A DNA stretch of 28,163 nucleotides, taken from an uncultured Phycisphaerales bacterium (lineage in GTDB: Bacteria > Planctomycetota > Phycisphaerae > Sedimentisphaerales > Anaerobacaceae). Within the stretch, counting starts at the first letter, position 1; every line of letters starts with the position of its first letter. The DNA lies in assembly GCA_937868145.1 (NCBI GenBank), contig CALMMH010000636.1, forward strand, positions 1 through 28,163, in the 5' to 3' direction. Shown here in pieces: positions 14,383 to 15,011 of this stretch. The notes under the pieces are model-generated. The model was not told the origin of the DNA. It did not search any database and worked only from the letters and a program-made list of their open reading frames with translations. A program made the translations under genes and the position numbers.

Positions 14383-15011
14383 TCACGCCGCCAACACGCC
14401 AAAGTCGAGCAGGAGACTCTCCAGTTCCGGAATCGCCAACGGCTTGGGGATGACGAACATCTCGTTGCCGTCGATGCTGCGGGCCAGCGTCCGGTACTCG
14501 TCCGCCTGGGGCGCCTCCGGGTTCCATTCGATGACGGTCTTCCTGTTGATCTCGGCCCGCTGCAGACGATGTAGATCTCCTCGGCCTTCCCCTCGCGGAT
14601 GGGCATGGCGAACCCGCCGCAAACGACGTCGCCCAGGACGTCGTAGAACGCATAGTCCAGGCTCTGCGAGTCGGCGTAGGCGCCGAGCTGTTCGAGCAGG
14701 TTGATCGAAGTGATAATGCCCCGGCCGGCGCAGCCCACGCCGGGCTCCGGCCCGCCCGATTCCACGCACAGCGTGCCGCTGTAGCCGACCCGCCGGATGT
14801 CGTCCAAATCCACATCCTCCCCCTCCTCCCGAAGCGTATCGAGCACCGTCTTCTGCGCCAGGCCCCCGAGCAACAGACGCGTCGAATCCGCTTTCGGATC
14901 GCACCCGACGACCATCACCTTCTTGCCCATCTCCACCAGCGCCGCAACCGTGTTCTGGGTCGTCGTGCTCTTGCCAATGCCGCCTTTGCCGTATATGGCC
15001 ACTTTTCTCAT
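14383..15011 (-). pseudogene. nifH: Nitrogenase Fe protein with internal deletion and frameshift
   Basis: The 5' frame has [23 protein letters not shown] and ends at EIYIVCSG. The true C-terminus ([12 protein letters not shown]...DFGVLAA stop at 14383) follows immediately in another frame. The EMMAMYAANN...HFVPRDN segment is absent. Confidence 0.9.

Follow-up and report, generated by a model that had tools for sequence, protein, structure and literature searches.

The window, by which we mean the whole stretch of DNA that was analysed, is one complete contig of 28,163 nt (C636) from a metagenome-assembled genome (MAG) of an uncultured Phycisphaerales bacterium. The MAG comprises 5.77 Mb in 1150 contigs, has an N50 of 6 kb and is 90% complete. 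The contig carries a cluster of nitrogen fixation genes, all read from the minus strand (Table 1). A gene for a NifA-like activator lies upstream of nifH, which is followed by nifI1, nifI2, nifD, nifK and an ORF that joins the C-terminal domain of NifB to a prepilin-type protein. The -24/-12 element ahead of nifH is intact and is the only one in the window, indicating that the promoter of the operon is intact. The nifH gene itself is in two parts that lie in different reading frames.

Table 1. Features of the nif region, with positions counted from the first letter of the window
Feature	Position	Strand	Remarks
nifA-like sigma-54 activator (GAF, AAA+, HTH_8), intact, upstream of nifH	15393..17039	-	73% identity to its positional counterpart in L015
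Sigma-54 type -24/-12 promoter element TGGCAC-N5-TTGCA, perfect, intact	15075..15090	-	64 nt upstream of nifH ATG; only match in window, 0.02 expected by chance
nifH 5' part, codons 1-152 (Walker A, switch regions, both [4Fe-4S] cysteines)	14556..15011	-	PF00142 positions 1-150, 249.8 bits; 97-98% identity to intact 275-aa NifH; 0 changes at otherwise invariant columns
nifH 3' part (..GVLAA and native stop 14383-14385), out of frame with 5' part	14383..14568	-	PF00142 positions 213-270, 40.8 bits; 92% identity to P0002 residues 216-275
ORF actually open, 224 aa (152 native and 72 out-of-frame residues)	14337..15011	-	TGA 14337-14339 overlaps nifI1 ATG 14338-14340 as ATGA
Junction 9-mer TGCAGCGGG, sole retained copy of presumed direct repeat	14556..14564	-	C-S-G in 5' frame, xV-Q-R-A in 3' frame
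nifI1 (PII-type regulator), intact	14014..14340	-	PF00543 E = 1.5e-22; 1 otherwise invariant column changed, within the relatives' range
nifI2 (PII-type regulator), intact	13598..13996	-	PF00543 E = 2.9e-22; 0 changes at otherwise invariant columns
nifD, full length, conserved	11900..13537	-	TIGR01282 644 bits; 2 changes at otherwise invariant columns (0-4 in intact relatives); intact homologues 88-92% identical
nifK, full length, conserved	10501..11925	-	TIGR01286 437.6 bits, above cut-off; no otherwise invariant column changed
Remnant NifB C-terminal (NifX-like) domain joined in frame to prepilin-type/DUF1559 protein	9099..10493	-	TIGR01290 positions 324-423 only, of 441; N_methyl motif at residues 145-167

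The nearest named NifH and NifD sequences come from MAGs of Planctomycetota. The genus has 23 other species representatives, all of them without NifH, and the nif operon therefore looks like an accessory trait in this organism, probably acquired horizontally. A flanking gene for a 1328-aa GH106-like protein has orthologues in five genomes of the same genus (73-79% amino acid identity). In four genus relatives, no other neighbours are shared around this gene, and local synteny is not conserved. An orthologue of the GH106-like gene (L183, G020:C43:3990-7907) contains four internal TGA codons; the gene may be broken or change frame, or the match may cover two genes.

Starting from the ATG at position 15011, nifH reads normally up to residue 152. 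The last codons of this part spell I-V-C-S-G (residues 148-152), and at the same point the sequence passes into a different frame, in which it reads (L/V)-Q-R-A-E-I-N.. and goes on to the native stop codon at 14383-14385. DNA alignment with the intact nifH of G038, a genome from the same order (75% nucleotide identity), revealed a single clean gap of 199 nt and nothing else. Consistent with this, the Fe-protein profile PF00142 matched twice, in two frames and with an overlap of 13 nt; profile positions 151-212 are gone, and no complete Fe-protein fold of about 270 residues is present in one frame. The deleted part is the GEMMAMYAANNI-coding stretch of intact nifH, and the 63 missing residues gave no tblastn match anywhere in the 5.77-Mb MAG. 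Residues 1-152 include the Walker A motif GKGGIGKS (residues 8-15, the same as in intact relatives) and both cysteine ligands of the [4Fe-4S] cluster (..GVGCAGRG.. and ..DVVCGGF..). A preliminary description of the locus had read the junction in two frames (C-S-G and V-Q-R), put the loss at about 199 nt with a shift of frame, noted that Walker A and both cluster cysteines are kept, found the missing stretch nowhere else in the window, and had the shifted frame end on a TGA overlapping the nifI1 ATG. All of these points are borne out, the overlap being the ATGA at 14337-14340.

The proteins closest to the 5' part share 97-98% identity with it over residues 1-152 and are all intact, at 275-287 residues; P0002, P0004, P0005 and P0007 are the nearest intact alleles. 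Among the related loci found in metagenome and genome collections, no nifH was nearer than 81% at the nucleotide level or 92% at the amino acid level. The truncated ORF forms a one-member cluster, found on this contig alone, in a collection of 5.8 billion proteins. The best match of this NifH among solved structures is the Fe protein of C. pasteurianum (1CP2).

Two other accounts of the interrupted gene were rejected. Programmed frameshifting or a split NifH does not fit: there is no slippery site, the 3' part is without a start codon and 63 core residues are lost. Nor was a mobile element excised, since the missing DNA is conserved nifH coding sequence. As a side observation, the frame of the 3' part can be read for 221 codons from an ATG that precedes the true start (14383-15048, minus strand). 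Gene-calling software could wrongly annotate this GC-rich shadow ORF as a gene.

The two parts of nifH meet on the 9-mer TGCAGCGGG, whose readings as Cys-Ser-Gly and as xVal-Gln-Arg-Ala both correspond to conserved motifs. The one repeat copy found at the junction aligns to both flanks, the alignments from the two sides overlapping on exactly 9 nt (14556-14564). In all of the 102-103 intact relatives, drawn from metagenomes and genomes, the codons for Cys150 and Val216 are spaced by 198 nt; this places the two 9-mer positions 199 nt apart. The length deleted, as given by the gap, is thus the spacing of the repeat sites in intact alleles. When 199-nt deletions were placed at random in 102 intact relatives, microhomology of at least 3 nt was obtained at 4.4% of positions, of at least 7 nt at 0.025% and of at least 8 nt never.

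These features are best read as the outcome of slippage, or of short-homology recombination, between two direct repeats of 9 nt. We propose that the 199-bp deletion would have removed codons 153-215 plus one base, most likely when replication slipped between two direct copies of TGCAGCGGG, or when these recombined by another short-homology route independent of RecA. The first copy would have encoded Cys-Ser-Gly (codons 150-152) and the second would have spanned Val-Gln-Arg-Ala (codons 216-219), with one copy left behind. The predicted product, of 224 residues, would be deprived of the C-terminal half of the Fe-protein fold and, for this reason, could not act as dinitrogenase reductase. Polar effects on nifI1-I2-D-K are probably small, as translation continues to the TGA that overlaps the nifI1 start.

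How much of the 9-mer was shared by the two sites bears directly on this proposal. Among 102 intact relatives, TGCAGCGGG is found exactly at the 3' site in 13 and at the 5' site in none, most of them using TCC or TCG for the serine. The Ser151 codon is TCN in 100 of the 102. The closest relative available (L015, 81% nucleotide identity) has AGT for Ser151, with TGCAGTGGC at the site, and is the only one with an AGY codon there. Taken alone, the 102 relatives would place the length of the microhomology between 3 nt (TGC) and 9 nt, with 3 nt as the firm lower bound. The same counts, along with the sequence of L015, speak for a different route, in which only 3-5 nt of homology (TGC or TGCAG) were used and the deletion arose from illegitimate end-joining and not from repeat slippage. 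The ancestral 5' site would then have read TGC-TCN-GGC or TGC-AGT-GGC, and the AGC-GGG brought in from the 3' side would mimic Ser-Gly by coincidence. Such a coincidence would be exceptional, however: the chance that the imported bases read Ser-Gly in the old frame was estimated at about 0.6% (6/64 x 4/64). In addition, both codons are ordinary in this operon, AGC being used for 18 of 72 serines and GGG for 25 of 133 glycines.

Further evidence came from a relative present in sequencing run X6 (about 91% nucleotide identity), which is represented by Logan unitigs and has the same nifA-nifH-nifI1-nifI2-nifD order. One unitig aligned with the window from position 15013 down to exactly 14556 and ended in 26 unmatched nt; another, of the same depth, aligned from 12848 up to exactly 14564 and ended in 194 unmatched nt. 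Allowing for the overlap of k-1 = 30 nt between unitigs of k = 31, the overhangs add up to 194 + 26 - 30 = 190, that is, 199 - 9. This sum implies that the X6 gene is intact and that, at both sites, its match to the window extends across all of the 9-mer. To judge from the alignment coordinates of the unitigs, as opposed to their letters, the X6 relative probably has an intact nifH with the 9-mer present twice. That its 5'-part unitig aligns right to 14556, the last G, argues against a homology of 3-5 nt, which we regard as an unlikely origin of the deletion. An ancestor with the full 9-mer at both sites would be a reconstruction, not a sequence that was read. The preliminary description had invoked recombination between repeats of 8-9 bp. 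The junction fits this suggestion, and homology of at least 8 nt never arose by chance; the firm bound is only 3 nt.

The deletion may, alternatively, be absent from the cells and have been created in vitro, as a chimera generated by template switching at the short repeat during library preparation or whole-genome amplification, or in silico, by a scaffolder joining contigs on a short overlap; thin coverage of the true 199-nt path would have allowed either product to persist. The fragmented state of the MAG (1150 contigs, N50 6 kb) points to coverage that was low or uneven, the allele occurs once among 5.8 billion proteins, and template switching in vitro also uses microhomology. Yet chimeric reads are rare and one would need to coincide with a coverage gap, and a join on a short overlap is possible only if each of the two contigs ends exactly at its copy of the repeat. 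Collapse of the repeat during assembly was rejected, since the values of k used by De Bruijn assemblers lie far above 9 and a repeat of 9 nt is too short to collapse on its own in a k-mer assembly. No contig of the MAG is longer than this one, which continues unbroken through the junction and has no other frame breaks. Its other large genes (nifA, nifD, nifK and the 1328-aa glycoside-hydrolase-like gene) are intact, showing that the assembly is not generally indel-ridden. An artefact of either kind therefore seems improbable to us.

A real deletion could also be polymorphic, intact and deleted alleles coexisting in the sample (for example, non-fixers beside fixers) with the assembler having delivered one of them. 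Intact NifH proteins at 97-98% identity are common, and runs X1-X3 contain short contigs that are 98-99% identical to parts of the operon, pointing to near-identical populations elsewhere; none of these crosses the junction among the matches listed. Against coexistence, the behaviour of assemblers is such that two length alleles at similar depth normally break a contig at the branch, whereas this contig runs through. Furthermore, no binned contig carries the missing stretch, though a contig of this kind would be too short for binning. Coexistence of the two alleles thus strikes us as quite unlikely. No public sequencing run contains more than 16% of the sampled words from the region, and no RNA run is listed among those that match. 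From the whole of this evidence we infer that the nifH deletion is likely to be real and to predominate in the sample.

The rest of the operon was examined for signs of decay by counting changes at alignment columns that are invariant in 40 relatives. NifD, NifK, NifI1, NifI2 and the 5' part of NifH have at most two such changes each (Table 1), and in the 3' part of NifH the junction codon is the sole change. Intact relatives have as many as 6 such changes in NifK and 0-4 in each of the others. The TIGR01282 score of NifD falls just below the equivalog cut-off of 653.55, and its TIGR01862 score (553.9) is over the cut-off of that model. The nif genes thus show no accumulated decay, which fits either a recent event or an artefact. 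Given the state of the other nif genes, the break in nifH would be recent on the scale of sequence divergence. In a separate observation, the 605-nt spacer between nifA and nifH (window 15014-15618) is replaced in the X6 relative by 574 unrelated letters, both flanking genes being alignable; this regulatory region would appear either to evolve much faster than the genes or to have been swapped.

Family searches and tblastn found no nifE, no nifN and no radical-SAM nifB in the whole MAG (90% complete), the only matches lying on this contig, in nifD, in nifK and in the sequence for the NifB C-terminal domain. Relatives with enough sequence have the order nifA-nifH-nifI1-nifI2-nifD-nifK-nifE-nifN-nifB (L096 is without nifI1/I2), and in them the NifX-like domain is the C-terminus of NifB. 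Here, the fusion ORF begins 7 nt after nifK, at the place where relatives carry nifE-nifN-nifB. Genes of the DUF1559/prepilin type are common in Planctomycetota. Homologues of the fusion with the same size of 460 aa occur in other assemblies, at 85, 75 and 74% identity. One of the fusion homologues (P0124) is recorded on a contig of 53,607 nt, and a contig of this same length is recorded for the intact NifH P0002 (98%) and the intact NifD P0132 (91%). Since the fusion is common to lineages with a whole nifH, the loss of nifENB from the operon predates the nifH break. The nifH deletion would then be a later event, private to this assembly, and it may represent a late step and not the inactivating one. 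Given a fragmented MAG (N50 6 kb) with 90% completeness, nifB, nifE and nifN could sit on unbinned contigs or elsewhere in the genome.

The minimal set of a diazotroph consists of nifH, nifD, nifK, nifE, nifN and nifB, all of which are required (Dos Santos et al. 2012, PMC3464626). Within this set, nifD and nifK are present and whole. By the six-gene criterion, the genome is not predicted to belong to a diazotroph, whether nifH is deleted or whole. Nitrogen fixation free of NifEN is known in Roseiflexus, yet it still needs NifB (PMC11573651). The preliminary description had taken the deletion for a recent inactivation of nitrogen fixation. The break does appear recent, in the absence of decay, but nifE, nifN and radical-SAM nifB were already missing from the operon. 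In sum, a real 199-bp deletion of nifH, produced by repeat slippage in an operon that was already without nifE, nifN and a catalytic nifB, would probably explain the data as a whole.

NifDK, NifI1/I2 and the NifB-C::pilin fusion might also be under selection for a role that dispenses with NifEN, with radical-SAM NifB and, here, with NifH. Several features are consistent with such a role: the conservation of NifD and NifK at invariant columns, the constancy of the 460-aa fusion across 74-85% identity, and the fact that the shifted frame leads ribosomes to the nifI1 start. We nonetheless consider selection for it very unlikely. Equally slight is the prospect that the operon is being repurposed rather than decaying, in which event the cells would tolerate the deletion in nifH or even benefit from it.

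The break has consequences for the detection of the gene. Primer positions on nifH were taken from PMC3405036, where the R6, PolR and Zehr-McReynolds reverse primers are located at nt 457-476 of the A. vinelandii gene. The numbering of A. vinelandii differs from that of the present gene by an offset of 6 nt, derived from the matches of the forward, IGK3 and DVV sites, and the site of these reverse primers accordingly falls at gene nt 451-470, across the break. With 3 mismatches allowed, no such site is left in nifH; the nested reverse primer has its position within the deleted stretch itself. The forward (115-131), IGK3 (19-47) and DVV (388-413) sites are all present without a mismatch. It had been suggested in the preliminary description that the gene would still be scored by nifH amplicons. 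This holds in part: the IGK3 and DVV sites are intact, but the commonest reverse-primer sites are lost. With its reverse sites on the break and its IGK3/DVV sites kept, the allele would be scored by IGK3/DVV-type primers, which would amplify it, and by HMM annotation, which still names the gene nifH at 250 bits. It would be missed by the most-used sets, namely Zehr-McReynolds, PolF/PolR and F2/R6.

The proposed event resembles deletions known from other systems. Hot spots of deletion between short direct repeats were reportedly found in the E. coli lacI gene by Farabaugh, Albertini and Miller, and models of slipped misalignment during replication are said to have been developed by Bzymek and Lovett. 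As in deletions between short direct repeats, the length lost from nifH equals the spacing of the repeats, one copy is retained and no recombinase site is needed; the repeat is of a few to about 10 bp and the spacing of a few hundred bp. Unlike the lacI-type deletions, the nifH event is deduced from one metagenome contig, and the ancestral repeats from relatives, no parent strain having been observed. In heterocystous cyanobacteria, the nifD element is excised between 11-bp direct repeats by XisA. The likeness lies in recombination between short direct repeats within a structural gene of nitrogenase. Excision of the cyanobacterial element, however, is programmed and driven by a recombinase, takes out foreign DNA and restores the gene, whereas here 63 conserved codons are lost and the frame is broken.

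The genome can also be compared with those that contain nifH within an incomplete nif set (PMC3464626). Like them, it is nifH-positive, falls short of the six-gene set and would be miscounted by surveys based on nifH only. It differs from the typical case in that a true anaerobe-type nifH lies beside nifI1I2DK, physically truncated, in place of a divergent nifH-like paralogue. The difference from the NifEN-free fixation of Roseiflexus (PMC11573651) is that the Roseiflexus system keeps NifB, which was not found in this MAG.

The loss of nifH is an ordinary kind of gene inactivation, within a more unusual operon, and the deletion opens no new mechanism or long-standing question. It carries a practical caution for nifH-based surveys. 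If our reading is true, the locus would be a clear natural case of the dismantling of a nif operon gained by horizontal transfer, the genes for cofactor assembly going first and the reductase gene next.
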